Positions 3,538-38,826 of a stretch of DNA of 50,102 nucleotides are shown here, one piece after another; positions within the stretch are counted from its first letter, which is position 1; every line of letters begins with the position of its first letter. Both the position numbers and the translations under genes were made by a program. The notes under the pieces are model-generated. The model searched no databases. It had not been told where the DNA came from and saw only the letters and a list, made by a program, of their open reading frames with translations. Source of the DNA: an uncultured Gemmatimonadaceae bacterium. GTDB taxonomy: Bacteria > Gemmatimonadota > Gemmatimonadetes > Gemmatimonadales > Gemmatimonadaceae. The stretch covers positions 1-50,102 of the forward strand of contig CAYSFN010000002.1 of NCBI GenBank assembly GCA_964430045.1. The letters run 5' to 3'.

Positions 3538-3556
3538 CCACACGAAAGGAACTCTC

Positions 3557-5095
3557 ATGCCCGTCGAGATCGTCGAGGACGAGTTCAAGTACATGAAGGC
3601 AATCATCGGCGGCGCCCCCGGCACGGGAAAAAGTCGGCAGGCGAGCACGTGGCCCAACGTGCTCTACCTCGACGCCGAGGGCCGCCTCCTCAGTGTCAGG
3701 GATCGCAAGCCGCGGCGGTGGCGCATCAAGTCCACCCTCGACCTCAAGGAGGTGATCTCACATCTTCGACAGTCGCCCGAGGTGCGAGAGAAGGTCTTCG
3801 GTGGGCCCGTCGAGACCGTGGTCGTCGACACCACTGACGAGATCGCCCGCCTGATCATCGCCGAGCGGCAGCAGGCCACCGGCCATGTGATGCAGCGCGA
3901 CGACTGGGGCCACCTCAAGGATGAGCTGTCGAAGTACGTGCGGGCCCTCCGCAACCTTGACGACATGCACGTGCTCTTCAACCTCCACCTTCAGACCGAT
4001 GTCCTCGACTCGGACACCGGTCGCTACGAGGTCGTGCCGCAGATCCAGGGAGCGATGAAGACGGAGATCTTCAACTTCGTCGACATCGCGCTGCTGCTCA
4101 CAGCCGAGAGCTACTCCGACACGAAGCTCGGTCGCACGGCGATCCGCCGGATGCAGACGATCCCCGACAAGGTCTACCCGTGGATCAAGGACCATACCGG
4201 AGCGATTCCGGATGGCTTCCTCATCAACTTCGAGGACGACTACGTCCGCCTCGCCACCCACGTCTTCGGTGAGGTTCCGCCGCCGGTGATGAGCGCTCTC
4301 GAGCTGGCCGAGAAGAACTTCGCCGGCAATCGCGAGGACCTGGTCGAGCTGGCCGAGGAGCTCCGCTCCCAGGACCCCGAACTCATGACTCCGGAGGAGC
4401 AGCAGGAAGCTGCCCGTCTCGAGGCCGAGCGTCGGGCCATCGAGCGCAAGGAGGAGTCGGAGCGGGCCAAGGCTGAGGTCATCGCCATGCGTTCGGGCAC
4501 GGCCCCGACGACCCCGACGGTGGCCGAGGTTCCGTCCGATGAGGGTGATGGTGAGCCCAAGCCGGCGAAGAAGGCGGCGGCCAAGAAGGCCTCGAAGAAG
4601 GCGGCCAAGAAGGCTGCTCCGAAGGCCGGTGAGCCCGAGGCCGAGGCAACGGCTGACCCCGACCCGGACCCGGAGCCGGAGCCTGAACCGGGGCCGACGG
4701 CCGAGCCCGAGCCCGAACCGGAGCCTGAGCCCGACTCGGATGCGGTGGCCTTGGCCGCCGACGTCTTCGAGGGCAGTGTCCCCGAGGATGAGGAGCCGGA
4801 GCCGGAGCGCCAGATCGTCGACCAGGACGGCGAGTCGGTCGAGCCGATCAACGATGACGCCAAGGAGCGGGTGGCCGCTGCCGCCGCCGAGGCCACCGTC
4901 GTCCCCGAGGATGGGACGAGCGAGCCCGAGGAGTCGCCGGCGGCTGACGACGCCGAGGCCGCCGACGAGATGGTGTGCGGCGAGTGCGGCGAATCGTTCG
5001 ATGACGAGGACATCTTCGAGATCTCCAAGATGCGCTACGGCGTCGTGCTCTGCCCGAAGGACTTCGCGGTGCGCCGCAGGGCGCCCAAGGCCTGA
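3557..5095 (+). CDS. Sak4/AAA_24-like RecA-fold ATPase with acidic low-complexity linker and C-terminal zinc ribbon
   Basis: ATG 3557 after AAAGGA. Walker A GGAPGTGKS followed by NVLYLDAEG. Long Glu/Pro/Ala/Lys-rich region. C-terminal CGECG...LCPKD. Confidence 0.75.
   Translation: MPVEIVEDEFKYMKAIIGGAPGTGKSRQASTWPNVLYLDAEGRLLSVRDRKPRRWRIKSTLDLKEVISHLRQSPEVREKVFGGPVETVVVDTTDEIARLIIAERQQATGHVMQRDDWGHLKDELSKYVRALRNLDDMHVLFNLHLQTDVLDSDTGRYEVVPQIQGAMKTEIFNFVDIALLLTAESYSDTKLGRTAIRRMQTIPDKVYPWIKDHTGAIPDGFLINFEDDYVRLATHVFGEVPPPVMSALELAEKNFAGNREDLVELAEELRSQDPELMTPEEQQEAARLEAERRAIERKEESERAKAEVIAMRSGTAPTTPTVAEVPSDEGDGEPKPAKKAAAKKASKKAAKKAAPKAGEPEAEATADPDPDPEPEPEPGPTAEPEPEPEPEPDSDAVALAADVFEGSVPEDEEPEPERQIVDQDGESVEPINDDAKERVAAAAAEATVVPEDGTSEPEESPAADDAEAADEMVCGECGESFDDEDIFEISKMRYGVVLCPKDFAVRRRAPKA
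4655..4735 (+). repeat. Pro-Asp/Pro-Glu dipeptide repeat tract inside the Sak4-like gene
   Basis: Encodes DPDPDPEPEPEPGPTAEPEPEPEPEPD from reiterated gacccg/gagccg units. Confidence 0.6.
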
Positions 5096-11566: not shown

Positions 11567-13300
11567 ATGCAAGGGAAGAGGATCACGATGGGCAAGGGCG
11601 TACTGGACATCTCGTCCACGCTGAAGCTGCCACTGGACTATGTCACGCAGACGGGTGCCATCTTGGCCCGGCGCGGCGCCGGCAAGACCTACACCGCGCT
11701 GAAGCTGGCGGAGGAGTTCGCCGAGAACGGACTGCCGTTCGTCGCCATCGATCCCACCGGGGTGATGTGGGGCCTGCGGTCCTCAGCCACCGGCGGGAGT
11801 GGCGGCTGGCCCATCGTGATCCTCGGCGGCGAGCACGGCGACATCCCGCTCGACTCGACGTCGGGCAAGGTCATCGCCGAGTTCGTTGTGGACTCCGGCA
11901 TGTCGGTGATCCTCGACCTCTCGCTCTTCGAGTCGAAGGCGCAGTCGAACCGCTTCCTCTACGACTTCGCCGACCGGCTGTTCCGCTACAAGGCGAAGCA
12001 CCGCGAGCCGCTCCACCTCCTACTCGACGAGGCCGACCAGTTCTGTCCGCAGCAGCCGAAGCCGGACGACATGAAGATGCTCGGGGCGTGGGAGTCGATC
12101 GTCCGCCTCGGCCGCAGCCGCGGCCTGGGCATGACCATGATCACCCAGCGCGCCGCCGTGCTGAACAAGAACGTGCTCACTCAGATCGAGGTGCTCTTCG
12201 CCTTCCAGAACACCAGCCCGCAGGACCGCAAGGCCATCCTCGACTGGGTCAACGCCACGGCGTCGAAGGAGGAGGCGAAGGAGATGCTCGACAGCCTCGC
12301 CTCGCTCCAGCCCGGCGAGGGCTGGGTGTGGTCGCCGGGCTGGCTCCGGGTGCTCGTGCGGGTACAGATCTCGAAGCGCAAGACGTTCGACTCCTCCCGC
12401 ACGCCCGAGGCCGGCGAGGTGCTCCAGCCCAAGCAGGTGGCGCCGGTCGACCTCGAGGCGCTGGCCGAGCGCATGCAGTCGACCATCGAGCGGGCCCTGG
12501 CCACCGACCCATCGATCCTCCAGGCCCGCGTGCGCGAGCTCGAGCGCGAGCTCAAGGCCATGGCCAACCAGCCGGCCGAGGTGCGGGTGGAGACTCGGGT
12601 GGTCCGCGTTGAGGTTCCGCCGGCCGGCATCGAGAAGCGGTTGCTCGATCTCAGTCAGAACCTCGCGATGTTCGAGGACGAGCTCCAGGGCGTGTACGAG
12701 GATCTCCGGTGTGCTCGAATCGAGGAGGAGGCCAAGGCCGAGGTGGCCGAGATCCAGGGTTCACCGCCGCCGGACTGGGCGGCGAAGAAGGTCCAGCGGC
12801 GCTCGGTGCCCGTGGCGGCCCCCGCCGGCGACGTGAAGCTGGGCAAGGCTGAGCGCATGATCCTCGCCGTTCTCTGGGATCACGGCCACCTGACCAAGGG
12901 TCAGCTCGGGATCCGCACGGGCTACCAGGCGAAGGGCGGCGGCTTCGGCAACGCCCTCAGCGCGCTGCGTACCGCCGGGTACGTCGAGGGATCGGGCGAT
13001 ATCGCGATCACCGACGCCGGCATGGCTGCCGCTCAGGCGATGGATCTGCCGTACATGCCCTCCGACCTCTTCGACTTCTGGAAGAACAAGGCGCACGGGA
13101 AGGCCGAGAAGCTCATCCTCGAGGAGCTGCGCCGAGCGGGCGACTGGGTCACCCGAGAGGACCTGGCGGCGGCCACCGGGTACGAAGCCAAGGGCGGCGG
13201 CTTCGGCAACGCCCTCAGCAAGGTCAAGACCATGGACCTGGTCGAGAAGGACGCTGGCTCCTTCCGCCTGGCCACCGACTTCCGAGAGGCCATCTCCTGA
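11567..13300 (+). CDS. HerA/FtsK-superfamily (DUF87-like) ATPase with tandem C-terminal winged-helix repeats
   Basis: Walker A RRGAGKTY, Walker B LLLDEADQF, then GRSRGLGMTMITQR. Alternative start ATG 11588 after GGGAAGAGGA. Two approx 86-aa repeats each contain GY(Q/E)AKGGGFGNALS. Confidence 0.75.
   Translation: MQGKRITMGKGVLDISSTLKLPLDYVTQTGAILARRGAGKTYTALKLAEEFAENGLPFVAIDPTGVMWGLRSSATGGSGGWPIVILGGEHGDIPLDSTSGKVIAEFVVDSGMSVILDLSLFESKAQSNRFLYDFADRLFRYKAKHREPLHLLLDEADQFCPQQPKPDDMKMLGAWESIVRLGRSRGLGMTMITQRAAVLNKNVLTQIEVLFAFQNTSPQDRKAILDWVNATASKEEAKEMLDSLASLQPGEGWVWSPGWLRVLVRVQISKRKTFDSSRTPEAGEVLQPKQVAPVDLEALAERMQSTIERALATDPSILQARVRELERELKAMANQPAEVRVETRVVRVEVPPAGIEKRLLDLSQNLAMFEDELQGVYEDLRCARIEEEAKAEVAEIQGSPPPDWAAKKVQRRSVPVAAPAGDVKLGKAERMILAVLWDHGHLTKGQLGIRTGYQAKGGGFGNALSALRTAGYVEGSGDIAITDAGMAAAQAMDLPYMPSDLFDFWKNKAHGKAEKLILEELRRAGDWVTREDLAAATGYEAKGGGFGNALSKVKTMDLVEKDAGSFRLATDFREAIS
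12932..12961 (+). repeat. 30-nt perfect direct repeat, copy 1
   Basis: aagggcggcggcttcggcaacgccctcagc. An identical copy lies 258 nt downstream, in frame. Confidence 0.85.
13190..13219 (+). repeat. 30-nt perfect direct repeat, copy 2
   Basis: Identical to 12932-12961. Encodes KGGGFGNALS in the second winged-helix repeat. Confidence 0.85.
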
Positions 13301-13712: not shown

Positions 13713-14086
13713 TGGCAAGACGAGCGAAGAAGTTGACCAAGGCCGAGAAGGAGGAGGCCGATACCACTCGCCGGGTGGCCTTCAAGGGCGGCCCCTACGA
13801 TGGCCTCCGGATGACAGTCGGCAAGAACCTCATGCGGGAGTACATGCGTCTCGGCTTCCCCGAGTGGGCGACCTACCGGTGGGACGGGGACGAGACCCTC
13901 TACGTCTACTTCGGGCCCGACCCAGCTCCGGCAGGCGCCGGCACGGTGCGCAAGCCAGTCGAGGGTCAGGCCGCCGTGAGGGGGGTCGTGGTCGATCCGG
14001 CCGACATCGATCTGTCGCATCGCGAGACCGCGGCCTGGAAGCGCGGTCGTCTCTTGGCCGGGCAGACCATGGCGGATGAAGGATGA
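13709..14086 (+). CDS. hypothetical protein
   Basis: Internal ATG 13709 of ORF 13388..14086, in an ATGA overlap. 125 aa. Confidence 0.55.
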   Translation: MMARRAKKLTKAEKEEADTTRRVAFKGGPYDGLRMTVGKNLMREYMRLGFPEWATYRWDGDETLYVYFGPDPAPAGAGTVRKPVEGQAAVRGVVVDPADIDLSHRETAAWKRGRLLAGQTMADEG

Positions 14087-15066
14087 AGCGGCTCGATGTG
14101 GTCGAGGCCGTCGTCGACTGCGAGGCATGTCCTCGGTCGAAGGTGACGATGCCTGTCCCGATCGCTGGGACAGAGGGAGCCGACTACCTGGTGGTGGGGG
14201 GCTATCCGAGCGCGGACGACGCTGAGGTGGCCAAGCCGTTCACGGGTGAAGCCGGCGATCTGCTCCGGGACACGCTCGCTGACGTGGGCCTCGATGAGCT
14301 TCGGCCGGCCTTCATGAGTGTCGTGGCCTGTGCCGGCGATGGGCCGACACCGGAGCACGTCGAGGCCTGCGCTCCTACTCGAGAGCTCCAGGCGAACCTC
14401 GCCGGCGCCCGCTGGACGCTGCTGGTCGGAGCTCTCCCGTTGCGCACGTACGCTCCAGCGCTGCGCACCGTTCACGGCCTCGGCCGCCCGTTCCTCATCG
14501 ACGGCATCGTGCACTTCGGCACCTTCAACCCGAGCCAGGCCATGGCCGACCCGTCCGTGCTTCGGCAGTTCCGGTCCCATCTCGAGACCTTCGCCGAGAT
14601 GCTCACCGAGGAGAAGGAGTGGACCCTCCATGGAGGCGATGACTGTTCGGTATGCGATGCCTGGTTCGAGTGGATCACTGACGACGGTCTCACCTGGTGC
14701 GGTGACCATGTTCCCGCCTACGGGCGCCAGGCCTATGAGGAACGCGTGGCTCTACTCGAGGAGCACCGGGATGTCCTGGCGCTCGAGTGGCAGACCGAAG
14801 ATGACGAAGGATGGACCAGACGCGCCTGGGAGACCTTGACGGGCTATCTTCGTACCCATGACGAATTCTTCGTCGATTCGTTTTGGGCCGAGACCGGGCT
14901 CGAGGTTCCACGCGAAGCTCGAGCCCTTGGTCCGCTGGTAAGGAGGGCGGCCATGGCCGGTCAGATGGAGAAGACGGGGGAGTTCCGCAAGTCGGATGCC
15001 TCCAACCGCAGCGAGAAGCCCGTGTGGCGTTCGCTCATCGGCCCGATGGTGGCGGCCCATGGGTAG
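14083..15066 (+). CDS. uracil-DNA glycosylase superfamily protein (family-4-like scaffold, altered active-site motifs) with C-terminal extension
   Basis: Fe-S-type Cys pairs CEAC and CAGDGPTPEHVEAC. Conserved KPFTGEAGDLL. Motif A reads GGYPS (not GEAPG) and motif B reads FNPS (not HPS). About 150-aa C-terminal region with CSVC...WCGDH. Confidence 0.7.
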   Translation: MKRLDVVEAVVDCEACPRSKVTMPVPIAGTEGADYLVVGGYPSADDAEVAKPFTGEAGDLLRDTLADVGLDELRPAFMSVVACAGDGPTPEHVEACAPTRELQANLAGARWTLLVGALPLRTYAPALRTVHGLGRPFLIDGIVHFGTFNPSQAMADPSVLRQFRSHLETFAEMLTEEKEWTLHGGDDCSVCDAWFEWITDDGLTWCGDHVPAYGRQAYEERVALLEEHRDVLALEWQTEDDEGWTRRAWETLTGYLRTHDEFFVDSFWAETGLEVPREARALGPLVRRAAMAGQMEKTGEFRKSDASNRSEKPVWRSLIGPMVAAHG

Positions 15067-25833: not shown

Positions 25834-25860
25834 GGCGTCGGCTCCGGGGTTGGGGGTAGG

Positions 25861-28490: not shown

Positions 28491-30119
28491 TCAAACGCCC
28501 CGGAAGACCATGGCCGCGTCGGACCCCGACTGGAAGTCCTTGACCGTCGCCGTCTTCCCTTGACACATGGCGTGGAGCGAGCCATGAGGGCTCACCGGTC
28601 GGCCGGTGGCGGACAGACCCCACGTGGTGGCGTCCATGCGCTCCATCTCGTCGAGGTAGGCCTTCATGAAGGGTCCCGGGACGTGGCACTCGTCATCGGT
28701 CATGAAGACGACGTCAGCTCGCACGCACCCTGTGGCGGCGTGCTCCTCCTGGAGGATGCGTAGCGCTTCCTCCATCGGGGTGACGAACGAGGTGCCGCCG
28801 CCGTAGAAGACCTCAGCCACCTCGATGATCCGCTCGAACGTGAAGTCCGAAGGCTTGGTGAACGAGTAGGTGCGGAACTGGCCGGGACCACCGAAGTGGA
28901 TCACGTGCATCGTGCGCTTCTGACGTCGGGCCAGGTCGAGGAGGCAGAGCATGACGGCCTTGGACCACATCTCGCGGTCACCGCTCATCGAGCCAGATCC
29001 ATCCTCCGCGTAGATGATCCCGCCGCGAGCCAGGCGTTCCGTGCCTCGCTTGGCGTACTGCATCACGCTGTGGGTGACCAGCTTGCGGAGGAAGAGGAGC
29101 TTGAGGCCTCGGTGGTGCCGGACGCCCAGCATCTCCGATGGCAGCATCCTGAATAGATCGTCGCCCATCTCGACGTCGTAGATCTCTTCGGGGATGTTCG
29201 TGGTCTTGCGCTTCTGTTCACTGAGCATAAGGTTGCGCATCGGACCGAACTTGTCGGCGATCTTGCGGAACCGGTCGCTCTTCAGGAGCTTGGCCAGCTT
29301 GAAGCGCTCCTCGGCGTTCATGCGCTTCAGCTCGCCAGGGTCAGCTCCCCAGCAGGAGGCGAGCTCCAGGTCGGCCTGGACAGCGTCGGCGGCAGCGTTC
29401 AGGGCCTCCCGTAGTGCGATGGCCACCAGCGGGGAGGCATCGTTGAGGGCGTCGGAGAGTCCGTCGGCCTGATCCTGGACCTGGTCCTGAAGCTCGCTCA
29501 CGGCCTCGTGGGCAGCCTGCGCTGCTTCGGCGGCTGCGTCCAGGGCCGCCCTCTCGTCGTCGGTCAGCTCCCGATGTTCCGGGGTCTCGGCGGCCGCCGC
29601 GTCGAGCCGGGTCTGGAGTGCCGCCATGTCGTCGTCGGCACTCGCAGCGTCAGCCGCCGCGCCAGCCAACGCCAGCAGCGAGTCGAGGAGCTCCTGGGCC
29701 TGCTTGCGCTCCTGGTCGAGCCTGTCGAACAGGGTCTCCAGGTCCGGCTCAAGGTCGGCCGCGCTGAGCGCCGCCTGGACGTCGTCGCCCTGGGAGTACC
29801 GGCGGAGACGCTTGTACTCCGGGAGGCCATGCATCTCCTCGATGACGGCAGCGTTCACCAGGTGGGAAGGCAGGATCTGGTCGGGGGCGAGCAGTTCGGG
29901 GCTGGCCTTGAGCAGCGACCAGAAGGTGTCGTCCATGGCCGGCTCGCCAGTCTCGACTGCTTCACCGAGGGTCCGCCGTGCGGCGGCGAAGGCCGCCACA
30001 TCGGTCAGCCGCTCCACCCGCTCAGCGTCGTCCCATTTGTCGAACAGCACGACGTGCTCGTTGAGCTCGTCGAGATCGATGCCGGTGGCTTTCCACTTCT
30101 TGGGCAGGTTGAACTCCAT
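28491..30119 (-). CDS. von Willebrand factor A (VWA) domain protein, ViaA-like partner of the MoxR ATPase
   Basis: MIDAS motif DGSGSMSG, followed by MHVIHFG, YGGGTSF and VVFMTDDE. Long acidic helical N-terminal region. 542 aa. Confidence 0.85.
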   Translation of the reverse strand: MEFNLPKKWKATGIDLDELNEHVVLFDKWDDAERVERLTDVAAFAAARRTLGEAVETGEPAMDDTFWSLLKASPELLAPDQILPSHLVNAAVIEEMHGLPEYKRLRRYSQGDDVQAALSAADLEPDLETLFDRLDQERKQAQELLDSLLALAGAAADAASADDDMAALQTRLDAAAAETPEHRELTDDERAALDAAAEAAQAAHEAVSELQDQVQDQADGLSDALNDASPLVAIALREALNAAADAVQADLELASCWGADPGELKRMNAEERFKLAKLLKSDRFRKIADKFGPMRNLMLSEQKRKTTNIPEEIYDVEMGDDLFRMLPSEMLGVRHHRGLKLLFLRKLVTHSVMQYAKRGTERLARGGIIYAEDGSGSMSGDREMWSKAVMLCLLDLARRQKRTMHVIHFGGPGQFRTYSFTKPSDFTFERIIEVAEVFYGGGTSFVTPMEEALRILQEEHAATGCVRADVVFMTDDECHVPGPFMKAYLDEMERMDATTWGLSATGRPVSPHGSLHAMCQGKTATVKDFQSGSDAAMVFRGV

Positions 30120-30129
30120 GAACGCCTCC

Positions 30130-31317
30130 TCAGGCGAGGCCGCGCTGGGCCTTCAGGGCCGCGGCCTCCTCGGGGGTGAGCTGGTAGATCTCGGCCAGCG
30201 CCCGGTCGTTGAGTTTGGTGAGGGTGGAGCGAACCCGGGCGACCTTGCGGGCCCGGCGGCCGGTGCCGGCCCGGGCTTTGAGGTCGTTGATCTCCTGGCT
30301 CGCCTTCATGATCTTGGCGTGCATGTCGTTGCCCAGGCGCATGCGGGCCTCGTCGGTGTCCACCTTGTCGACTTCCCCTTCGAGTAGGCGGATGTTGCGC
30401 ATGAGGACGTCGATCTCGGTGTCGAGGGGGTTCGACAGCTCCTGCACCACTCGAGCCACCTCACCGCGCTGCTCCTGCTCCTCCCAGAGGATGTGCTCGG
30501 CGTGCATGAGGTGGTCGGTGTCGGCGACGGTGGACCCGTCCAGCCAGGCGGCGGCGCGCACGACGTCGAGCAGCTTGAAGTAGCGGCGTTCCGACGGGCG
30601 GATCTCCTTCTCGGCCAGCTTGGCCCGGATGCTGACGATGGCCTCAATGACCGACGGCGGGATGACGACGGCGCTGACCTCGGCCTGAGCTTGGGTGACC
30701 TCATCCCAGGAGAGGATCGGCGTCGGGTTCTCGGGGCGCTGCGTCGTGAGCATGCGCTCGAAGGACGAGACATCCTGGACGTGGTCGGTCAGGAGCCGGA
30801 ACACCATGCGGTCGTAGAGGGCGTTCAGGTCGTTGTCCATGGGCAGGTCGTTGGCTGCACAGATCATGAAGCGCAGCGGGATGCTCACGACGTGGCGTCC
30901 GTGGCGGTACTGGCGCTCGTTGATGGCCCAGAGCAGACCGTTCAGGATGGCCGAGTTCGCCCGCCAGACCTCGTCGAACATCGCGCCGTGGGCCGTCGGC
31001 AGGTAGCCCTCGATCTCCCGTTCGAAACGACCCTGGTCGAGGGCGACGAGGGAGGGCGGCCCGAAGACCTCCGCGGGCTCGGTGGTCTTCGCCATCAGGA
31101 TCTTGAAGAACTCGACGCCGCCGATGTAGGCCTGCAGACGGTCGAAGAGGAGGGACTTGGCCACGCCGGGCGGGCCCAGCATGAACAGGGTCGAGCAGCT
31201 CAGGATCGTCAGGATGGAGCACTCGATCTCGGTCTCGCGCTCGACGAGCTCCTGGCCGAGGACCGTCTCCAGGGCGGCGAACTTCGCCGGCAGCGAGGTG
31301 GTGGTGGCGGTGGACAT
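30130..31317 (-). CDS. MoxR-family AAA+ ATPase, RavA-like
   Basis: Collinear with my recollection of E. coli RavA: LFMLGPPGVAKSLL, TEPAEVFGP, GYLPTAHGAMFDEVWRANSAILNGLLWAINERQYRHG, RFMICAANDLP, ALYDRMVFRL. Confidence 0.9.
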   Translation of the reverse strand: MSTATTTSLPAKFAALETVLGQELVERETEIECSILTILSCSTLFMLGPPGVAKSLLFDRLQAYIGGVEFFKILMAKTTEPAEVFGPPSLVALDQGRFEREIEGYLPTAHGAMFDEVWRANSAILNGLLWAINERQYRHGRHVVSIPLRFMICAANDLPMDNDLNALYDRMVFRLLTDHVQDVSSFERMLTTQRPENPTPILSWDEVTQAQAEVSAVVIPPSVIEAIVSIRAKLAEKEIRPSERRYFKLLDVVRAAAWLDGSTVADTDHLMHAEHILWEEQEQRGEVARVVQELSNPLDTEIDVLMRNIRLLEGEVDKVDTDEARMRLGNDMHAKIMKASQEINDLKARAGTGRRARKVARVRSTLTKLNDRALAEIYQLTPEEAAALKAQRGLA

Positions 31318-31348
31318 GGCGTCTCCGTGGGGTAGGGCTGGGGTGGGG

Positions 31349-31378
31349 ATCGTACGGAACTGGAACAGCTTAGGTCAA
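31349..31378 (-). promoter_or_regulatory. candidate promoter TTGACC-N18-TACGAT with an ACTGGAACA copy (inverted orientation) in the spacer
   Basis: The coding-strand reading is TTGACCtaagcTGTTCCAGTtccgTACGAT, about 30 nt upstream of the MoxR start codon at 31317. Confidence 0.35.
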
Positions 31379-31503
31379 TCGTCGCTCTTGCGCTCGTGCT
31401 GAGCGCGGAGTACCCGGCGGATCATGGCCGCTTCACGGGCCTGGTCGTCCTCGAACTCCTCCCGGGTGGGGAGGCGTTCGAGGCGACGCTGCTTCTCGGT
31501 CAC
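31375..31503 (-). CDS. possible 42-aa protein
   Basis: GTG 31503 in a GTGA overlap. Encodes VTEKQRRLERLPTREEFEDDQAREAAMIRRVL... Confidence 0.35.
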   Translation of the reverse strand: MTEKQRRLERLPTREEFEDDQAREAAMIRRVLRAQHERKSDD

Positions 31504-31790
31504 TCGTAGCCGTACTTCCGGCTGACGGTGTGCATGAGGTCGTCGATGGTGTCGGCGCCGACGGTCTCGCGGGGCACGCCGTACACCCAGACCTGGCAGT
31601 AGAAGGCGTCGTCGGCGAACCACACCCGGCCGTTGAAGTCCCAGTCGGCGTAGCGGCACCAGCCCTCGCCGGCCCGGAGCATCTCCTCCGTGCCGGGGTC
31701 GACGGTGAAGGCGAAGTTGGACAGGCCGAACTCGGGGGTCTCGACGAGCTCGGGCGGGGGGCCGGGTGTGGTGGTCAGGTCGATCGTCAC
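31500..31790 (-). CDS. hypothetical protein
   Basis: GTG 31790 in a GTGA overlap. 96 aa. Confidence 0.5.
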   Translation of the reverse strand: MTIDLTTTPGPPPELVETPEFGLSNFAFTVDPGTEEMLRAGEGWCRYADWDFNGRVWFADDAFYCQVWVYGVPRETVGADTIDDLMHTVSRKYGYE

Positions 31791-32701
31791 GCGATCGCCT
31801 CCTCGAGGGGGTAGATGAAGGGGGAGTCGGCGGCGAGCGTGCCCTTGCGCCGCAGGGCGACGACGTGGCCGCGCTCGTCGGCGTAGCGCCGATCGTCGAG
31901 GTCGCCGTCGATCACGGGGAAGCCGGCGATCTCGTCGGGGATGGGGCGGAGCTCGCCGGTGCGCCGGTCCTTGCCGCCGGGCGTGGCGAGCACGACGGCC
32001 ACGTTGCGGCCGGCGTTGATGTTGCGCGCCATGGCGCCCTTCGAGGACTTCTCGGACCACGAGTAGGTGAGCACGTAGTTCGACGGCATCGACCGGACCG
32101 GCCGGCTCACGAGCGGGTGCTTCGTGTAGTCGTAGAAGCGCACGTCGGCGTAGTGCACCCAGAACCAGGACGGGAGCACGCGCTCCCAGCGGATGTCGCT
32201 GAAGGCGTTGAGGCGCACGCCGATGCCGCCCGGGTGTCGGCGGCGCAGCTTCTCGAGGTCGTGGACGAGCAGGATGAAGAAGGCCCGGGGGCTGTTCGTC
32301 AGCAGCATCTTGCGGGCCGAGCGCACGTCGGTGGTGCGATCCCACCGACCGTTGCCTGAGTAGGCGACGCAGCCGTCGGTGCATGCGCCGCGCTGCGGGC
32401 AAACCTCGACGCCGGCGACGTCGGCCGGGGCCAGGGCCAGACCGGCGAGGGTGAGGTGGTCGACGCCAGCGTCCTTCTCGAGCTTCGTGATGGAGGTGTT
32501 GGGCGAGAGGATCCACAGGCCCTCGGCGCCGGGCGAGGTGAGCACGGACTGCCTGAAGGCAACGCGCTGCTCGTTGAGGATGCGGATGGCCCGCTTGTGG
32601 GCCGTGGTGCCGTACGGGTACCAGGCGGGGAGGAAGGGGACGAAGTCGTTCAGGGTGGACCGGATGCGGTCCTCGAGGTTGGCGTAGGTGAAGGTGGTCA
32701 T
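31787..32701 (-). CDS. hypothetical 304-aa protein with CX6CX3C cluster
   Basis: Internal ATG 32701 in an ATGA overlap. Contains CPQRGACTDGCVAYSGNG. Looks like a conserved phage protein but I cannot name the family with confidence. Confidence 0.6.
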   Translation of the reverse strand: MTTFTYANLEDRIRSTLNDFVPFLPAWYPYGTTAHKRAIRILNEQRVAFRQSVLTSPGAEGLWILSPNTSITKLEKDAGVDHLTLAGLALAPADVAGVEVCPQRGACTDGCVAYSGNGRWDRTTDVRSARKMLLTNSPRAFFILLVHDLEKLRRRHPGGIGVRLNAFSDIRWERVLPSWFWVHYADVRFYDYTKHPLVSRPVRSMPSNYVLTYSWSEKSSKGAMARNINAGRNVAVVLATPGGKDRRTGELRPIPDEIAGFPVIDGDLDDRRYADERGHVVALRRKGTLAADSPFIYPLEEAIA

Positions 32702-33315
32702 GAGTCTCCCTGACTTCGCTTGCGGGGGTAGCAGGTCCGACAGAATCGGCTGCCACGGCTGTCGTAGCCGGTGTTCGTCGGGGTGTAGGCGTGGCCATGG
32801 ACGCACGCCGTCTTGCGGAAGTTGCGAGCTTGGAGCGAGTTGGATCGGAGGACGTTGATGCGATCGGTGGTCTGGACGAGGTGATCGGGGTTCACGCATC
32901 GGCGGGTCTGACAGATGACGTGGTCGAGGGGCAGGGCTCGCGCCGCCAGCCGATGGTCGGCGGGGTATCGACGTCGCGTCCCTCGGTAGTGCTCCCAGGC
33001 CCAGACGTGGGCGCGCCAGAGCTTCGGGCCTACTCGAAAGGCTCCGTACCCGGTGTCGAAGCAGCCGGCAGTCCAGAGCCAGCACCCACCCGTCGACACC
33101 TCCACCTTCTCGGTGAAGCGTTCGATCGGCGGTCGGACCGGCCTCAGGCCCTGTCGGTTGACCTCGGCGTCGCCGTGCTTCCGCCAGCGCTGGTAGTGGC
33201 GGGCGCACATCTTTCGAGCGCGGACCGGATCGTCGCACCCGTCAATCGAGCAAGTCGAGGCTGCGGAAGGATCCTTCGAGCTGGTCGACGAGGCACTCGC
33301 GCGGTCGCTTGTCAT
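32698..33315 (-). CDS. HNH homing-type endonuclease
   Basis: CSIDGCDDPVRARKMCARHYQRWRKHGD, followed by GCWLWTAG...GYGAF...AHVWAW...DHVICQTRRCVNPDHL, typical of actinobacterial/phage HNH_3 proteins. ATG 33315 would overlap the ligase 3' end by 74 nt. Confidence 0.8.
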   Translation of the reverse strand: MTSDRASASSTSSKDPSAASTCSIDGCDDPVRARKMCARHYQRWRKHGDAEVNRQGLRPVRPPIERFTEKVEVSTGGCWLWTAGCFDTGYGAFRVGPKLWRAHVWAWEHYRGTRRRYPADHRLAARALPLDHVICQTRRCVNPDHLVQTTDRINVLRSNSLQARNFRKTACVHGHAYTPTNTGYDSRGSRFCRTCYPRKRSQGDS

Positions 33316-34090
33316 CGCGGATCCTAAGCATGCGGGGCTGGTACAGCCGGATGGTCTTCGCCGTCCGGGTAGCATATAGGAAACGCACCTCGAGCACGTC
33401 ACCGACCTTGACGTGGGGCTTGCCGCTCAGGGAGCAGCGCCCGACGATCAGGGGCTTGCGGCTGCGCGGCGTGGGGTAGACGCCGTACTCGCAGTTGTCG
33501 TGTCCGTCGAGGCCCTTGGCCAGGACCACGACGTCGACGGTCTTCGTGAACTTCACCTTGAGGATGGCGCGCTCGGCCTGCCGGTATCGGTCGTCGGCCC
33601 GGCGGATGATGACGCCCTCGCCGCCGCCGAGGCGGATGGCCTCGAACAGCGCCCGCTTGTCGGCCTCGGTGGAAGCCTCCCGGACCAGGCGGATGCCGCC
33701 GCTGCTGAACATCACGTCGGCGATCATCTCGAGCTGCATGCGCCGGGTGGCGTACTCGTCGGTCTCGTCGAGGACGATCCGGCCGTCGGGCTGGACCACC
33801 CGGACCAGGTCGAAGACGTGGTAGGTGAAGTCGAGGAGCTCGCCGTCGAGCACGAAGGTGCCTTGGGCGGCCAGGCCGCGCAGGTCCTGCTTGATCCGCT
33901 CGCCGATCGGCTTCGTGTAGGTCTGGCCGTTGCGCCCCCAGAACCGCAGGACGGTCTTGCCGTCGACCTGCAGCGCCTCGGCCACGACCCGGTCGCCGTC
34001 GATCTTCTGCTGCCAGCGGGTGTCGGGGTTGATGGCGTGGACGCCGATCTGGCGAACGTCGAGCTCGGCGGCGAGCATCGGCTCGATCAT
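33242..34090 (-). CDS. lig: minimal ATP-dependent DNA ligase
   Basis: Nucleotidyltransferase motifs I KIDGDR, III FVLDGELL, IIIa YHVFDL, IV GEGVIIRR and V ILKVKF, plus OB-domain motif VI RMLRIRDDK. 282 aa. Confidence 0.85.
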   Translation of the reverse strand: MIEPMLAAELDVRQIGVHAINPDTRWQQKIDGDRVVAEALQVDGKTVLRFWGRNGQTYTKPIGERIKQDLRGLAAQGTFVLDGELLDFTYHVFDLVRVVQPDGRIVLDETDEYATRRMQLEMIADVMFSSGGIRLVREASTEADKRALFEAIRLGGGEGVIIRRADDRYRQAERAILKVKFTKTVDVVVLAKGLDGHDNCEYGVYPTPRSRKPLIVGRCSLSGKPHVKVGDVLEVRFLYATRTAKTIRLYQPRMLRIRDDKRPRECLVDQLEGSFRSLDLLD

Positions 34091-34650
34091 CAGAACACCA
34101 TCCCGGGGAGGCGCTCGAAGTACCAGAGCCAGGAGTCGGCGTCGACGTACCACTGGATCATCTCGGCCACGATCAGCGGCACCTCGAGGCGCTTCACCAG
34201 CGGGTCCATGTCCGGGATGTCGGGGAGCTCCTCGAGCTTGACGCCGAGCATCTCGTCCAGGGCGAGGACCAGGCGCATCGCCACTCGGTCGGCGTAGTGC
34301 TCGCGGTCGATGTCGCAGACGGCGATGCCGACCGCGACCGGCACGATCGGGTCTTCCTTCCAGCGGTCACCGATCAGGCGGCCGCCGGGGTGCTCGATGA
34401 TGAAGCGGTTGATCAGCAGGGTGTGGATGTTGGCGACCGGGAGTCGGACCACCCGATTGATGTTCCACATCGCCGGGGTCCAGGTCTTCTCCTGGGCGTC
34501 CACGATGCGGGGGCCGTGGTAGGCGCTGGTCGGCAGCTCGACCACCCGACCGACGATGTCGCCGGACTTGGGTTGGCGGTCGGGCTGCATCGTGATGCGA
34601 ACGGTGTCGCCGAGACCGGCGATCGCCTTGAACTCGAGAGGCGTCATCAT
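34090..34650 (-). CDS. hypothetical protein (Ku-ligase operon)
   Basis: TGATG junctions on both sides. 186 aa. Confidence 0.6.
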   Translation of the reverse strand: MMTPLEFKAIAGLGDTVRITMQPDRQPKSGDIVGRVVELPTSAYHGPRIVDAQEKTWTPAMWNINRVVRLPVANIHTLLINRFIIEHPGGRLIGDRWKEDPIVPVAVGIAVCDIDREHYADRVAMRLVLALDEMLGVKLEELPDIPDMDPLVKRLEVPLIVAEMIQWYVDADSWLWYFERLPGMVF

Positions 34651-34967
34651 CAGAGGATTCCCTCGTCTCCAGGTCGGGTGAGCTTCTCGGCCAGATCGGC
34701 CAGGCCTTCCTTGGCCTCGTCGGCCTTGGCGGCCAGCTCGGCGCGCTCGGCCTCGGCGAGGACCTTCTCGAAGTCCTCGTCGTTCTCGCCGGTGCGCTCG
34801 GGCGGGATGGAATCGTCGATGCGGAACATGCCCCGCAGGCGGGTGACTCCGCCCTCTTCGGTGGCCGGGATGATGGCCAGGTCGGTGACCTTCATCCCCT
34901 GCCCCCGGGCCACCCGCTCGACCGCTTGGCGGATGCGAGCGAGGGCCCGGGTCTCGTCAGTCGCCAT
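34650..34967 (-). CDS. hypothetical protein (Ku-ligase operon)
   Basis: Internal ATG 34967. 105 aa. Acidic helical C-terminus. Confidence 0.5.
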   Translation of the reverse strand: MATDETRALARIRQAVERVARGQGMKVTDLAIIPATEEGGVTRLRGMFRIDDSIPPERTGENDEDFEKVLAEAERAELAAKADEAKEGLADLAEKLTRPGDEGIL

Positions 34968-35235
34968 CGGGCAGCCGATCCTCGAGCTCGTAGGGCACCC
35001 ACTGGTGCATCGGGAGGACCTCCCGGCGAGCCAGCGTGTCGGTGCGCACACCCTCGAGGCGCGCTGCCAGTTGGAAGCACGCCGTGATCTCGATCGGCGT
35101 GGCCGAGCGTGCACTCAGGCCGGCGAGAGCCTCCAGCAACAGCGCTCGCTCGCGAGGCCGAAGCTGGAGGCTGACGTCGGGGATGCCTTGGGGGACGGGA
35201 TTCCGCATCCACCCCTGGAAGATGCCGCCTGCCAT
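34957..35235 (-). CDS. hypothetical protein (Ku-ligase operon)
   Basis: Internal ATG 35235 in a TGATG junction with the Ku stop. 92 aa. Confidence 0.5.
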   Translation of the reverse strand: MAGGIFQGWMRNPVPQGIPDVSLQLRPRERALLLEALAGLSARSATPIEITACFQLAARLEGVRTDTLARREVLPMHQWVPYELEDRLPDGD

Positions 35236-36098
35236 CAGGCGGCCTTGACGGCGGCCTTCTTGGCGGCACGCTTGCGGGGCTTCTTCGCCGGCTTGGTCGT
35301 GGCCAGCATGGCGGCGAGCGCCGCCGTCGGGTCGTCGGCCCGGACCTTCGAGACGGGCTCGGGCTTCGGCGCGTTCGGGTCGCTGACCGCCCGCTTCAGA
35401 TCCTCGACGGCCTCGACCTCGCGGTTGGCCCACTCGTCGGGGACGAAGGGCTGGGGGTCGGCGCCGGCGAACTGCTGGAGCTGGGCGAGCAGGCCGGCGT
35501 CGTACTCGGCGTGCTGGACCTGCACGTCGTGGAAGCTGCCGGGCCGGATGAGCTCGACCAGGGTGAGCATGCCCTCGCGGTTCATGATGCGGTACATCTT
35601 CTGCTTCGAGCGCATCGTGAGCTCGCAGACGAACGCGAGGTTCGAGTCGAGCACGAGGTCGCAGAACATCGAGTACAGGCCGGGGTTGGTCTGCGGCTGG
35701 ATGCGGTAGACCGAGCCGGCGGCGAAGGTGTTCGCCTCGACCTCCTCGGCCTTGAAGACCTGGACGTTGGCGATGCCCTTCGGCACCTCCGTCTCGCCGA
35801 GGACCTCGATCTGCTCGGTCGTGACCTTGAGCAGGGTGCCGTCGACCTTCACGGCGCGGTGGGCGTCGGAGCTCGAGAACGGGCCGTGCTCGGGGTTGTG
35901 CGTGCAGGCGTACTGCTGCTTGAGCGGCTGCGCGTCCTCGCAGGTCGGGCAGACGATCTTCAGCTCCTTCGGGTCCGAGATCACGGCCGGCAGGATGTTG
36001 ACCGGGATGGTGCTCACGCCGAAGAAGGTGAGCATGACGTTCGAGGAGACCGAGCGCGGGTTCTTGTGCTCGTCGGTGGTATCGGTGGTGGTGGACAT
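35235..36098 (-). CDS. ku: Ku-like DNA end-binding protein
   Basis: ATG 36098 after GGAGGA. LTFFGVSTIPVNILPAV matches the bacterial Ku N-terminal ISFGLVxIPV strand. CPTC zinc-ribbon insertion at the position of the C-x2-C in M. tuberculosis Ku. YRIQPQ...LYSMFCDLV...MLTLVELIRP core. Lys-rich tail KPAKKPRKRAAKKAAVKAA. Confidence 0.75.
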   Translation of the reverse strand: MSTTTDTTDEHKNPRSVSSNVMLTFFGVSTIPVNILPAVISDPKELKIVCPTCEDAQPLKQQYACTHNPEHGPFSSSDAHRAVKVDGTLLKVTTEQIEVLGETEVPKGIANVQVFKAEEVEANTFAAGSVYRIQPQTNPGLYSMFCDLVLDSNLAFVCELTMRSKQKMYRIMNREGMLTLVELIRPGSFHDVQVQHAEYDAGLLAQLQQFAGADPQPFVPDEWANREVEAVEDLKRAVSDPNAPKPEPVSKVRADDPTAALAAMLATTKPAKKPRKRAAKKAAVKAA

Positions 36099-36113
36099 GG
36101 CGTCCTCCGTTTC

Positions 36114-36128
36114 TGTTCCAGTTTCCAG
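36114..36128 (-). promoter_or_regulatory. exact ACTGGAACA copy plus an adjacent CTGGAA half-site, in the Ku leader
   Basis: The coding strand reads CCTGGAAACTGGAACAgaaacGGAGGAcgccATG. The motif ends 16 nt from the start codon. Confidence 0.5.
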
Positions 36129-36138
36129 GGGTGGTGTG

Positions 36139-36167
36139 ACGGTACCGAAGAGGTGTGACACCGTCAA
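36139..36167 (-). promoter_or_regulatory. candidate promoter TTGACG-N17-TACCGT for the Ku-ligase operon
   Basis: Coding-strand hexamers at 36167-36162 and 36144-36139. Direct repeat GGTGTGAC x2 in and around the spacer. Confidence 0.35.
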
Positions 36168-36179
36168 TCGAACGGACGT

Positions 36180-36563
36180 TCAGGCCGGCAGACTGGCCCT
36201 CAGTTCGACCAGGTCGGCGATGCGTTCGTTCACGTCGTCCATGCTGCGCTTGATGGAGGTGATGAGGTTGTCGGCCATCCGGACGGCAGCGTCGATGCTC
36301 TCCCCGCCGATGAGGCCAGGCTGGACGAGGGCGCCGATGACGTAGCAGAGGTGCTGCTGGATCTCCTGCTGGGCGGCGAGGACGTCGGCGCTCGGGCGAT
36401 CGTCGACGGGCATGTCGTCGCGGTTGGACTGGTCGACCTTCTTCAGGAAGAGCAGGTCCCAGCCGTTCCCCATGACCGAGAGGGTGCCGTCACTATCGAA
36501 GACGTCGGCGGTGATGGCGGTGTAGTTCGTCGTGCGGAAAGGCTCGAGCGATGCGTCGGACAT
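36180..36563 (-). CDS. hypothetical protein
   Basis: ATG 36563 in a TGATG junction. 127 aa. Confidence 0.55.
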   Translation of the reverse strand: MSDASLEPFRTTNYTAITADVFDSDGTLSVMGNGWDLLFLKKVDQSNRDDMPVDDRPSADVLAAQQEIQQHLCYVIGALVQPGLIGGESIDAAVRMADNLITSIKRSMDDVNERIADLVELRASLPA

Positions 36564-36994
36564 CAGGCGAGGTCGCCCTCGCGTTCGCCCTGCTCGCCGC
36601 CCTCCTCGTCGTGACCGAAGCGCTCGGCGTCGACCTCGCTCGGGTCGTCCTGGCGTTCCTCGAGGTGGGCCGGGTAGGTGACCTCGAGGTCGCCGCCGGA
36701 CGGAGCGTCGGCGTCGTCGGTGAGGATCGTGCCCGCCTGGGTGACGTAGCCGGGGGCGTCGCGGAGCTGGTCGAGGATCGGGCTGGTCGGGTCGTTGCGC
36801 TCCCGGCGCATGATCTGGTGCCAGCCGGTCTCGTGGTACTTCGGGTCGAACTCCCCGGGCGTCTCGTCGAGCAGACGGAAGGCCTCGAACGACGCACCCT
36901 CGAAGGCCTCGAGGACGTCCTGGCGGGTGGGGTGGAGGGGGAAACCCCTCGCGATCTTGTGGGCTTCGGCGTACGGCTGGGACTGAGGACTCAT
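36563..36994 (-). CDS. hypothetical acidic protein
   Basis: Internal ATG 36994 in an ATGA overlap. 143 aa. Confidence 0.55.
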   Translation of the reverse strand: MSPQSQPYAEAHKIARGFPLHPTRQDVLEAFEGASFEAFRLLDETPGEFDPKYHETGWHQIMRRERNDPTSPILDQLRDAPGYVTQAGTILTDDADAPSGGDLEVTYPAHLEERQDDPSEVDAERFGHDEEGGEQGEREGDLA

Positions 36995-37653
36995 GTTGAT
37001 ACCTTCCCGTGGATGCGGGGTGGCGGGGTTGCCACCAGCTCGCGACCGTAGTGATCGCTGAGCTTCTCGTGGATCATGGCGTGGGCGTCGTCGGATGTGA
37101 CCTGGCGGAACCGACGCTCGAGTTCGCCGACGTCCTCGAACTCGACGCGCTGGCGACCGGGGCGGAAGTGCAGCAGCACCTCTCGGCCGGGGGCGTAGAC
37201 CGTGAGGTCGATCCAGATGGCCGAGCTCGCTCGGTCGTCGTGCCAGAGGTGAAGCGAGTAGTCGATGCGGCAGCGGTCGTAGGGGTCTTCGAGGTCCGCC
37301 GGCCAGGCGTTGAGGCACCACGCCAGCGGCGTGATGAAGCTCGAGGCCTGGCTTGTCGGGCCGACCGTGGCGAACCCGACTGCCGCGAACCAGACCCGCA
37401 GCCGGTTCAGGTGGATGAGGAAGCGCTCCTCGAACCGGGCCTGAACGGCTTGGTGCTTCTCCCTGATGTCGTCGTCCACAGCGGTCTCCTTGGTGCAGGT
37501 GGCGCACAGGGCGCCGAGCGGGGGTGTGACGGCCAGCCCGATGCGGCGGCCGCAACGGGCGCATGCGTGGCGGGGTCGTCGGTCGGGGACGTAGGGCCCT
37601 TCTCGGTCCGGGGGTTCATCCGGTGGGCCGATCAGGAACCAGGGATCAGGCAT
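36991..37653 (-). CDS. hypothetical protein with N-terminal zinc ribbon
   Basis: Internal ATG 37653. 220 aa. CARCGRR...CATC. Confidence 0.55.
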   Translation of the reverse strand: MPDPWFLIGPPDEPPDREGPYVPDRRPRHACARCGRRIGLAVTPPLGALCATCTKETAVDDDIREKHQAVQARFEERFLIHLNRLRVWFAAVGFATVGPTSQASSFITPLAWCLNAWPADLEDPYDRCRIDYSLHLWHDDRASSAIWIDLTVYAPGREVLLHFRPGRQRVEFEDVGELERRFRQVTSDDAHAMIHEKLSDHYGRELVATPPPRIHGKVST

Positions 37654-38260
37654 CGCCCTTGAGCACGGCGACGTCCTCGCCAGTGAGCTGCCGGTGGTTG
37701 CAGTCGCCGCAGTTGTCGGGTTGACCGCACACGACGCAGAGCTCCTCGTCAGCGATCTCGGGCCAGTCGCGATCGAAAGCGTCGGGGCGTGGGGGCATTG
37801 CCCTGGACTCGACGACAGCGATGACACCCTCGAGGGCGGCGGAGCACATGACCGAACCGCGCTCCTTGAGCAGGTTCACCATGTCCCGCTGGTTCTCGAG
37901 CCACTCAGCTCGCTCCACCGGATCGTGGAGGTTCATCCAGCCGAGGTCGACGTCGAAGAGCCCCGCCGGCTCACCCTCGCCGATGAACTGGTTGGGCTCG
38001 TCGGGGTCCCGGATCACGAGCACGATCGTGCGTTCGGCGGTCCACTCTTGGGGCAGTCGACCGGCGTTCGAGAGCTCGCGGTCGAGGTCGATGAAGCACT
38101 CGACGAGCTCACGCAGGTGCTCGTTCTCTCGTTCGGGGTTGGCCGGCAGCGGCGTGCCAGCCTGCGACATGGCATCGCGAGTCATGTCCATGCCGCGGAT
38201 CGTGCTGATGGCTGCCCGGCAGCCGGCGAGGAAGGTGTTGGCGTTCCTCTCGTCGGTCAC
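37646..38260 (-). CDS. hypothetical protein
   Basis: GTG start in a GTGA overlap. 204 aa. C-terminal CVVCGQPDNCGDC. Confidence 0.55.
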   Translation of the reverse strand: MTDERNANTFLAGCRAAISTIRGMDMTRDAMSQAGTPLPANPERENEHLRELVECFIDLDRELSNAGRLPQEWTAERTIVLVIRDPDEPNQFIGEGEPAGLFDVDLGWMNLHDPVERAEWLENQRDMVNLLKERGSVMCSAALEGVIAVVESRAMPPRPDAFDRDWPEIADEELCVVCGQPDNCGDCNHRQLTGEDVAVLKGDA

Positions 38261-38826
38261 GTGGCCTTCTTGACGGGGCGTCGGCTGGCGGTCGCCTTGC
38301 GGACTCGGGGCTTCGGCCCCGGCTTGGCCTGGAGGACGACGGCGGCCTCATCGCGCTTGGCCTGCGCCGCCTCGAGCGGGGCGAGCCGGGCCTCGAGGCT
38401 CTCGATGATGCCGTTCAGGTGGTCGATGTGCTTGTCGTGGCGCCTGCGGTCGATGACGTCGACGAACTCGGCCTGCGCTGCGAGGTTCACGTTGGGGATC
38501 GGTCGCCCGCCGCGGTCCGACAGGGCACGACCTTCCGCTTCGAGCTGACCGCCGACGTAGCGGAAGGCGCGACCGATGGCGAGCAGGCGGCCGATCTCTT
38601 CGTTGGGTTCGTCGTCGTGCTGACGCTTCGAGCTGCCCTCGACTTCGATGGTGCGGCCGAGGGCCGAGACCTCGATCCTGTAGGCGGCGACGTCGACACC
38701 GGCGTAGCTGTCGAGGACCTTGAGCGTGATGTCGGGGGCGGTGACGTTGGGCATGGTGTTCTCCGTTTGGCAGGTGTGGCAGACCATGGTGGCGTTGCCG
38801 ACGGTGGGGATCGTCCAGGTGGTCAT
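38257..38826 (-). CDS. hypothetical protein with basic C-terminal tail
   Basis: Internal ATG 38826 in an ATGA overlap. 189 aa. CHTC near the N-terminus. Tail KPGPKPRVRKATASRRPVKKAT. Confidence 0.55.
   Translation of the reverse strand: MTTWTIPTVGNATMVCHTCQTENTMPNVTAPDITLKVLDSYAGVDVAAYRIEVSALGRTIEVEGSSKRQHDDEPNEEIGRLLAIGRAFRYVGGQLEAEGRALSDRGGRPIPNVNLAAQAEFVDVIDRRRHDKHIDHLNGIIESLEARLAPLEAAQAKRDEAAVVLQAKPGPKPRVRKATASRRPVKKAT

Follow-up and report, generated by a model that had tools for sequence, protein, structure and literature searches.

In prokaryotes, NHEJ (non-homologous end joining) is usually described as a two-protein system, and to our knowledge the Ku proteins of phages have so far been described as borrowing the LigD of their host. 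Here, we describe a locus within a 50.1-kb stretch (hereafter the window) of the 53.2-kb metagenomic contig CAYSFN010000002.1, in which a Ku gene is followed on the same strand by genes encoding a 105 amino acid protein (g105) and a minimal ATP-dependent DNA ligase. Our analysis suggests that these three genes form a phage-borne DNA end-joining or end-protection module, a reading that we consider reasonably likely from the comparison of sequences, and that the virus probably brings its own DNA-end-joining kit instead of borrowing the ligase of its host.

The mycobacteriophages Corndog (Ku gp87, cluster O) and Omega (Ku gp206, cluster J) encode Ku proteins that act together with host LigD to circularise genomes with 4-nt overhangs (PMC3706429, PMC4351075, PMC12848934), and both have been reported to depend on this host enzyme (PMC12848934). 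Their Ku proteins resemble the Ku of the window in being single-domain proteins with a basic C-terminal tail, and share with it a high-GC, actinobacterial-type phage setting. The window Ku is too divergent for tblastn to reach any deposited phage Ku. The initial annotation had noted that these phages borrow the host LigD. No ligase was detected within 5 kb of Ku in Corndog or in the Omega-like phage Yeet, whereas in the window the ligase is encoded four genes downstream of Ku in the same operon. Corndog and Yeet also differ from the window in having no g105-family gene.

Among cellular systems, Ku accompanied by ATP-dependent ligase-only enzymes is over-represented in Actinobacteria (PMC7719229, PMC5124664), and LigC and LigD of Streptomyces are enzymes of this kind (PMC5124664). 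The Streptomyces KuA and LigC/LigD system resembles the window in using a ligase without polymerase and nuclease domains. It is, however, a cellular system in which kuA is paired with polK and ligC with polR, with polymerases supplied in trans (PMC5124664). In contrast, no AEP polymerase was found elsewhere in the window, whose primase is of the DnaG type, and the window ligase does not reach the equivalog level for LigC or LigD. Cellular Ku/ligase-only NHEJ is not known to include a g105 partner. As in the Ku-LigD systems of Mycobacterium and Bacillus, the Ku and ligase genes of the window lie close together in the same orientation, and its Ku has the core, helix and basic tail; unlike them, it has no polymerase (POL) or phosphoesterase (PE) domains, so that neither gap filling nor 3' end cleaning would be expected, and it has a conserved third protein. 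In characterised systems, the isolated ligase domain of LigD is a direct target of the Ku core and minimal C-terminal helix, and the core stimulates it (PMC13201618). A non-exhaustive search of full-text literature turned up no account of a phage Ku accompanied by a ligase of its own or by a g105-like partner. Since a minimal ligase accompanies Ku in this group of uncultured and probably large phages, the reliance on the NHEJ of the host that has been reported for Corndog and Omega may not be general.

Analysis of open reading frames (ORFs) identified five overlapping ORFs on the minus strand of the window at positions 33242-36098, encoding proteins of 287, 92, 105, 186 and 282 amino acids (Ku, g92, g105, g186 and the ligase; Table 1). 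All five start with ATG and overlap, from Ku to ligase, by 1, 11, 1 and 1 nt, so that the re-read lengths and coordinates agree with the initial annotation of five genes linked by 1-nt or 11-nt overlaps. Their third-position GC content (0.83-0.99 in a context of 68% GC) is a signature of real coding sequence. Comparison with a near-identical relative (locus L012) gave ratios of nonsynonymous to synonymous substitution rates (dN/dS) of 0.13 for both Ku and g105 and 0.28 for g186, as expected of real genes under purifying selection.

Table 1. Positions of the features discussed in the text.
Feature	Position	Strand	Description
PD-(D/E)XK nuclease	2665-3537	+	Part of recombination module
Sak4-like ATPase	3341-5095	+	Part of recombination module
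DnaG-DnaB primase-helicase	5865-8357	+	Contains an intein splicing domain
HerA/FtsK-like ATPase	11567-13300	+	
UDG-like gene	14083-15066	+	
VWA-like protein	28491-30119	-	542 amino acids; MoxR partner; phrog_24053
MoxR-type AAA+ ATPase	30130-31317	-	Pfam bpMoxR, 149.9 bits
Promoter-like TTGACC-N18-TACGAT	31349-31378	-	Upstream of MoxR; from promoter scan
Gp88-family protein (PF17338)	31787-32701	-	Pfam, 113 bits; phrog_1617
His-Me/HNH homing-endonuclease-like ORF	32698-33315	-	Between ligase and gp88; start codon uncertain, may overlap the 3' end of the ligase gene
Ligase	33242-34090	-	282 amino acid minimal ATP-dependent DNA ligase: nucleotidyltransferase and putative OB domain
g186	34090-34650	-	186 amino acid protein in variable slot
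g105	34650-34967	-	105 amino acid acidic protein, pI 4.6
g92	34957-35235	-	92 amino acid ORF between Ku and g105; insertion specific to the window genome
Ku	35235-36098	-	Divergent Ku homologue, 287 amino acids; Cys3His-type CxxC insert, ALAAMLA helix, Lys-rich tail
ACTGGAACAG in Ku leader	36113-36122	-	15 nt ahead of the Ku ATG; possible shared regulatory element
Promoter-like TTGACG-N17-TACCGT	36139-36167	-	Upstream of Ku; putative promoter

The first gene of the array was annotated as a Ku homologue, and our searches bear this out. The protein exceeds the gathering cut-off of Pfam PF02735 (33.7 bits over residues 27-184; cut-off 25) and matches phrog_4873, described as 'Ku-like DNA end binding'. 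Searched in the PDB as a single sequence, it matched one solved Ku (9vnq, E = 8e-4), and a profile of its seven-member clade matched Ku chains only (9i91, 1.6e-11; 8v53, 3.2e-11; profile positions 21-271). The same profile matched the phage Ku proteins of Corndog (5e-14) and Yeet (7e-13). Two elements pointed out at first annotation, a CxxC insert and a Lys-rich tail, are both present and conserved in the clade: the CxxC pair (C50, C53) is kept together with C65 and H71 in six of the seven aligned sequences, and the tail KPAKKPRKRAAKKAAVKAA comes after an ALAAMLA segment in which L261, A263 and L265 are invariant in all seven. By analogy with characterised Ku proteins, the C-terminal helix may serve as a ligase-recruiting element (PMC13201618). 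A search of 5.8 billion protein clusters returned six relatives of this Ku. No match to it was obtained by tblastn in deposited phages or plasmids, and scans of IMG/VR, of 185,579 GTDB species genomes and of JGI metagenomes with the Ku alignment yielded no relative.

The last gene of the array encodes, as proposed, a minimal ATP-dependent DNA ligase without the polymerase and phosphoesterase domains of LigD, a conclusion on which Pfam, motif and PDB profile analyses agree. The protein scored 43.4 bits against PF01068 (DNA_ligase_A_M; cut-off 26.2) and matches phrog_114, and its score against the Pfam RNA_ligase model (17.7 bits) is below the cut-off of 27. A profile of the ligase family gave 48 matches in the PDB, and the significant whole-domain ones were all ATP-dependent DNA ligases, among them Pyrococcus ligase, Lig4, Lig1, Lig3 and the LigDom of Mycobacterium tuberculosis (Mtb) LigD (1vs0, 4.5e-11); a few WD40-repeat chains matched one short stretch of the profile, and no RNA ligase or capping enzyme was present among the 48. 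Judged by these profiles, the 282 amino acid protein is a DNA ligase and neither an RNA ligase nor a capping enzyme. The six motifs noted at first annotation are all conserved in a five-member family alignment, including K29 in QKxDGxR (QKIDGDR in the conserved set, with LDGEL, FD, EGVI and KVKFTKT), and PRMLRIRDDK, present in all five sequences, could be aligned weakly, and in a stretch of its own, to motif VI of the Pyrococcus ligase. No match of the window ligase to the Pfam OB model PF04679 was obtained. The nucleotidyltransferase and putative OB parts account for the full 282 residues, with no polymerase (AEP) or phosphoesterase domain, and the protein lies below the LigC/LigD equivalog level (50 bits, cut-off 296; NHEJ_ligase_lig, 40.5 bits, cut-off 227.75). 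The ligase alignment found nothing in IMG/VR, and in the genome scan it found just relatives of 24-28% identity in three unrelated metagenome-assembled genomes. Six relatives of the ligase (P0050, P0065, P0069, P0070, P0075 and P0087) contain a WGR domain (PF05406), which is not found in the window ligase.

The third gene, g105, belongs to a family for which an exhaustive profile search of a library of 1.84 billion proteins identified 33 representatives. Its members are about 100 amino acids long, with every match full-length, and are uniformly acidic (pI 4.3-5.3); most end in G-[IF]-L, and the more distant ones in D-W-L. The structure prediction called for at first annotation yielded a confident AlphaFold2 model, to which no known fold was matched: the model built from the 33-sequence alignment (mean pLDDT 88.7, used in place of an earlier two-sequence model with a pLDDT of 68.7) begins with a helix at the N terminus, followed by a beta-hairpin and a helix of 35 residues, and Foldseek found nothing significant for it in the PDB or BFVD. 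No consistent family match was obtained in Pfam, PHROG or NCBIfam, and a search with a family member gave no match in phages. Two candidate assignments were rejected, namely a GspM/PulM-like domain (weak T2SSM_b matches in 2 of the 33 members; Foldseek E above 0.6) and a TALE-like protein (the matches to TAL effectors in the PDB were summed repeat noise with no single significant stretch). The g105 proteins may therefore represent a new protein family with a confidently predicted but unmatched fold. Three contigs with g105-family genes (L006, L007 and L008) are too short to judge their Ku context. In L006 (2-385) and L008 (1159-1875), the protein encoded before the g105 gene is not Ku and has, by eye, a SWIM-type zinc-finger motif; in L008, a Lys-rich tail is present in this protein as well.

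The window and four related loci (L001, L002, L003 and L012, the last reached through the ligase search) share the order of Ku, g105 and the ligase, with all three genes on one strand. Ku and the ligase are separated by one gene in L001, four in L002 and two in L003, and in an all-against-all BLAST the g105-like gene is the only middle gene common to these three loci and the window. The initial annotation had expected all five genes to be co-conserved, and this holds for Ku, g105 and the ligase; it does not hold for g92, present in the window only, nor for g186, found only in L012 and, in a shortened form, in L003. In a census of 80 further loci collected from a metagenome scan with the ligase alignment and examined with our own hidden Markov models for Ku, g105 and the ligase, seven loci had both Ku and g105 and 73 had neither (Fisher p = 3e-10); for the 26 loci with at least 3 kb of upstream sequence, the numbers were 5 and 21 (p = 1.5e-5). 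Two of the census loci are near-duplicates, which makes the effective number slightly lower. The seven census loci with Ku have a GC content of 0.50-0.66 and encode Ku, g105 and then, at a distance of 0-2 kb, the ligase, all on one strand, indicating that the module is not confined to high-GC elements.

Altogether, Ku was present in 12 of 91 related loci, and a g105-family gene lies downstream of it in all 12. The ligase, a MoxR-type ATPase and a VWA-like protein are encoded in ten of the 12; of the remaining two, the L009 contig ends just after g105, and L003 has the ligase and ends before MoxR. The proposal that this Ku travels with its own ligase is true for every relative with enough sequence, with the ligase gene 0-2.5 kb downstream of Ku/g105 on the same strand, and the linkage spans GC contents of 0.50-0.68 and protein identities down to about 35%. 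In L005, g105 is followed by the ligase and MoxR, and the contig stops just upstream of g105. The pairing of Ku and g105 survives rearrangement: in L009 (1299-4319), a distant Ku is separated from the g105-family gene by a DNA polymerase III beta clamp and, after it, two small genes, and its Ku near a beta clamp is reminiscent of Corndog, where the order is Ku, gp86, gp85 and beta clamp. L018 has a RuvB-like gene between g105 and the ligase, and a RuvB-like ATPase is often encoded close to Ku in these loci. The strict association of g105 with Ku argues, with moderate confidence, that g105 is a Ku cofactor. Relative to known NHEJ, the Ku-associated g105 family would appear to be new.

The comparison with L012 showed that the ligase can change while Ku and g105 stay nearly the same. 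Ku and g105 of the two loci are 97 and 95% identical, whereas the ligases (window 33242-34090, L012 10001-10837) share 53% identity and are as distant from each other as either is from the ligase of L003, indicating that the slot was kept and its occupant exchanged. A sliding comparison revealed two clean insertions in the window (258 nt with g92, and about 580 nt with an endonuclease-like ORF) and a trough of identity centred on the ligase, next to the latter insertion. This pattern could reflect homing-associated co-conversion or allele replacement.

Taking these observations together, we propose that a conserved sigma-70/SigA-like promoter would drive the module, which would form the promoter-proximal part of a leftward operon of greater length. 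A Ku homodimer would thread onto double-stranded phage DNA ends, perhaps the termini of the linear genome after its injection or breaks introduced by nucleases of the host, and would protect and bridge them. With its core and conserved 'minimal C-terminal' helix, Ku could then recruit the phage ligase, and compatible ends would be sealed. In this proposal, g105 would be an obligatory partner of the Ku lineage, acting as an adaptor or regulator of Ku loading, Ku unloading or ligase recruitment, and the purpose of the whole may be circularisation, break repair or end protection. Since the Ku core acts on the isolated LigD ligase domain and the Streptomyces enzymes are ligase-only, Ku and a minimal ligase are a plausible complete sealing unit for compatible ends. 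The cassette encodes no polymerase or phosphoesterase, and it would suit short cohesive termini like those of Corndog and Omega or clean nuclease cuts, not damaged ends. The g105 family would be a candidate accessory factor in prokaryotic end joining, known from comparative genomics, and the compact set of Ku, partner and 282 amino acid ligase might also hold practical interest for editing bacterial genomes by end joining.

Several observations weigh against an end-joining module of this kind. The Ku protein scored 33 bits against NCBIfam TIGR02772 (Ku_bact; cut-off 150; aligned model positions 10-227 of 259), and a score below this equivalog cut-off points to a divergent lineage and not to an ordinary bacterial Ku. 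Nothing in the 50-kb window could be recognised as a virion gene. The Ku-bearing loci form one syntenic group, so that the conserved order may partly reflect common descent. The ligase family is wider than Ku, most of its members having no Ku nearby, as in 21 of the 26 metagenomic loci whose upstream sequence extends to 3 kb or more; relatives of the ligase adjoin the terminase in L013/L014 (one of them on a 141-kb contig), and in the Micrococcus phage Kurnik one lies a few genes upstream of the terminase. The ligase may thus be a general replicative or repair enzyme. The ligase-family profile detected no second ligase in the window, its sole match being the 282 amino acid protein, so that a housekeeping role fits as well.

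It is possible, if on balance doubtful, that the module serves mainly in counter-defence, resealing breaks made by restriction or CRISPR nucleases, with circularisation not its main task. A phage ligase by itself (PhiKMV gp17) has been reported to protect PhiKMV-like phages from cuts by Cas12a and EcoRI (bioRxiv 10.64898/2026.09.21.753257). In that system, a DNA ligase encoded by the phage repairs double-strand breaks in the genome of the phage; in the preprint's abstract, it is presented alone, with no Ku or partner. A role of this kind would also be in keeping with the methyltransferase-like gene and the PD-(D/E)XK nuclease/Sak4-like recombination module of the window, and a ligase that has no end-processing domains is suited to breaks that are clean and compatible. 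However, the sequence does not separate repair from circularisation, and counter-defence is compatible with the end-joining module that we favour.

We consider it unlikely that the system provides end protection only, with Ku and g105 capping phage DNA ends against host RecBCD/AdnAB-type nucleases and the ligase, an ordinary replicative or nick-sealing enzyme of the phage, uncoupled from them. The model for such a cap is Gam of phage Mu, a Ku-like protein that binds DNA ends, protects them and is able to promote their joining (Bhattacharyya et al. 2018, as cited in PMC8136500). Gam is a distant Ku relative that works with the host NAD+ ligase, whereas the window encodes a member of the Ku family proper and its own ATP-dependent ligase. 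The Ku-free and terminase-linked members of the ligase family and the lack of another ligase-family match in the window speak for uncoupling, as do the replacement of the ligase allele, separately from Ku and g105, between the window and L012, and the fact that g105 tracks Ku and not the ligase. On the other hand, in all Ku loci that are long enough to tell, the ligase gene lies within 2.5 kb downstream of Ku/g105 in the same orientation, a position retained despite the allele replacement, and Ku has kept its C-terminal helix, the element by which the ligase is recruited in characterised systems.

An extension of the end-joining module to its downstream neighbours was also considered. A MoxR gene and a gene for a VWA-like protein of about 540 amino acids lie downstream of the cassette in all ten Ku loci with enough downstream DNA (L001, L002, L012, L018, L042, L043, L047, L048, L055 and L086). 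In eukaryotes, p97/VCP extracts Ku, and on this model Ku, g105, the ligase, MoxR and the VWA-like protein would be one end-joining machine, in which g105 would be a dedicated cofactor and MoxR/VWA would free or remodel Ku rings trapped on the DNA once it has been ligated, a proposal that strikes us as decidedly unlikely. If true, it would mean that viral NHEJ has accessory factors, and would offer a handle on how Ku is released from sealed DNA in prokaryotes. The converse, that these five genes are unrelated early genes of one large-phage lineage held together by inherited synteny, would explain the collinear Ku/ligase-MoxR-VWA block shared by the Ku loci (with DUF6744 further on in several) and the fact that our searches found no relatives of the Ku clade outside that block, but is highly improbable given that g92, g186, the HNH-like ORF and the 49, 92 and 233 amino acid genes of L002 come and go while the core persists, that Ku and g105 stay together in the rearranged loci L009 and L018, and that Ku beside an ATP-dependent ligase is a hallmark of bacterial NHEJ operons (PMC7719229).

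The promoter-like sequence and leader motif that the initial annotation placed before Ku were both confirmed. The 81-nt gap upstream of Ku holds the promoter-like site, the 10-mer ACTGGAACAG and a GGAGG sequence 7 nt before the ATG. The pattern TTGACG-N17-TACnnT occurs once in the window (0.01 occurrences expected), and its hexamers and 17-nt spacing are kept 5' of Ku in L001, L002, L003 and L012, in three of which the proteins are just 47-59% identical, which is good comparative evidence for a real promoter. The leader 10-mer has 11 sites in the window with at most one mismatch (1.85 expected), including exact copies at 36113, 31359 and 48671 and copies with one mismatch at 25860, 19606, 9889 and other positions. 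Many of these sites sit in intergenic leaders (those of Ku, the RuvB-like gene and others), suggesting that the motif may be an operator or shared regulatory element. One copy lies inverted within the spacer of the promoter-like site before MoxR, and GTTCCA(C) in this spacer is also kept in L001, L002 and L005, where sites akin to the MoxR promoter (TTGAxC...GTTCCAC...TACCAT) are found upstream of MoxR.

The description of the five genes as a self-contained operon seems to go too far. No terminator-like site was found across 31000-38500, and hence none after the ligase, and the His-Me/HNH-like ORF and the Gp88 gene follow on the same strand. Because there is no terminator and the next promoter-like site precedes MoxR, the transcription unit probably runs from Ku through the ligase and the endonuclease-like ORF to Gp88, with the site before MoxR probably marking its downstream limit. 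The Gp88 gene, which would probably share this unit with Ku and the ligase, is next after the ligase in L003 and L012 (83% identity between window and L012) and not in L001, L002 or L005. We rejected Gp88 as a Ku-linked gene, as its family comes from cluster A mycobacteriophages (238 mycobacteriophage records) and shows no Ku association. The VWA-like protein of the window had no Pfam match; its homologues in L002 and L012 gave weak VWA_2 matches, and the L012 homologue is 77% identical to it.

The initial annotation had also suggested that the three middle genes may supply end-processing functions, and no nuclease, polymerase or phosphatase signature was found in any of them. The first, g92 (third-position GC 0.83), is absent from L012 despite the near-identical Ku of that locus, in which g105 starts within 1 nt of the Ku stop codon; g92 had no tblastn match in any fetched locus and no family in Pfam, PHROG or NCBIfam. 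The g186 protein likewise matched no family in these three databases; it is 80-81% identical to the product of a 187 amino acid gene in L012 and 39-43% identical to that of a 124 amino acid gene in L003, and is absent from L001, L002 and the lower-GC loci. The His-Me/HNH-like ORF has a weak match to Pfam zf-His_Me_endon (E = 8.5e-4) and a relative of 32% identity elsewhere in L001, and is absent from L012 and L003. We regard g92, g186 and the His-Me/HNH-like ORF as variable passengers outside the end-joining machine.

Finally, we infer that the window is the non-structural arm of a large uncultured phage. It encodes a DnaG-DnaB primase-helicase with an intein, a methyltransferase-like gene, a RuvB-like ATPase, a DUF6744 protein and many small ORFs, and several of its genes match PHROG families. 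The plus-strand arm carries the recombination module together with a HerA/FtsK-like ATPase and a UDG-like gene. Neither an integrase gene nor any tRNA gene was recognised in its 50 kb, no close DNA relative of it was found among deposited phages, and the primase-helicase had no match in deposited phages and weak ones in plasmids. Related modules adjoin rIIA/rIIB homologues in L086 and lie on a 136.7-kb contig in L048. An intein splicing domain is present not only in the primase-helicase of the window but also in the MoxR gene of L002 (13477-15477).

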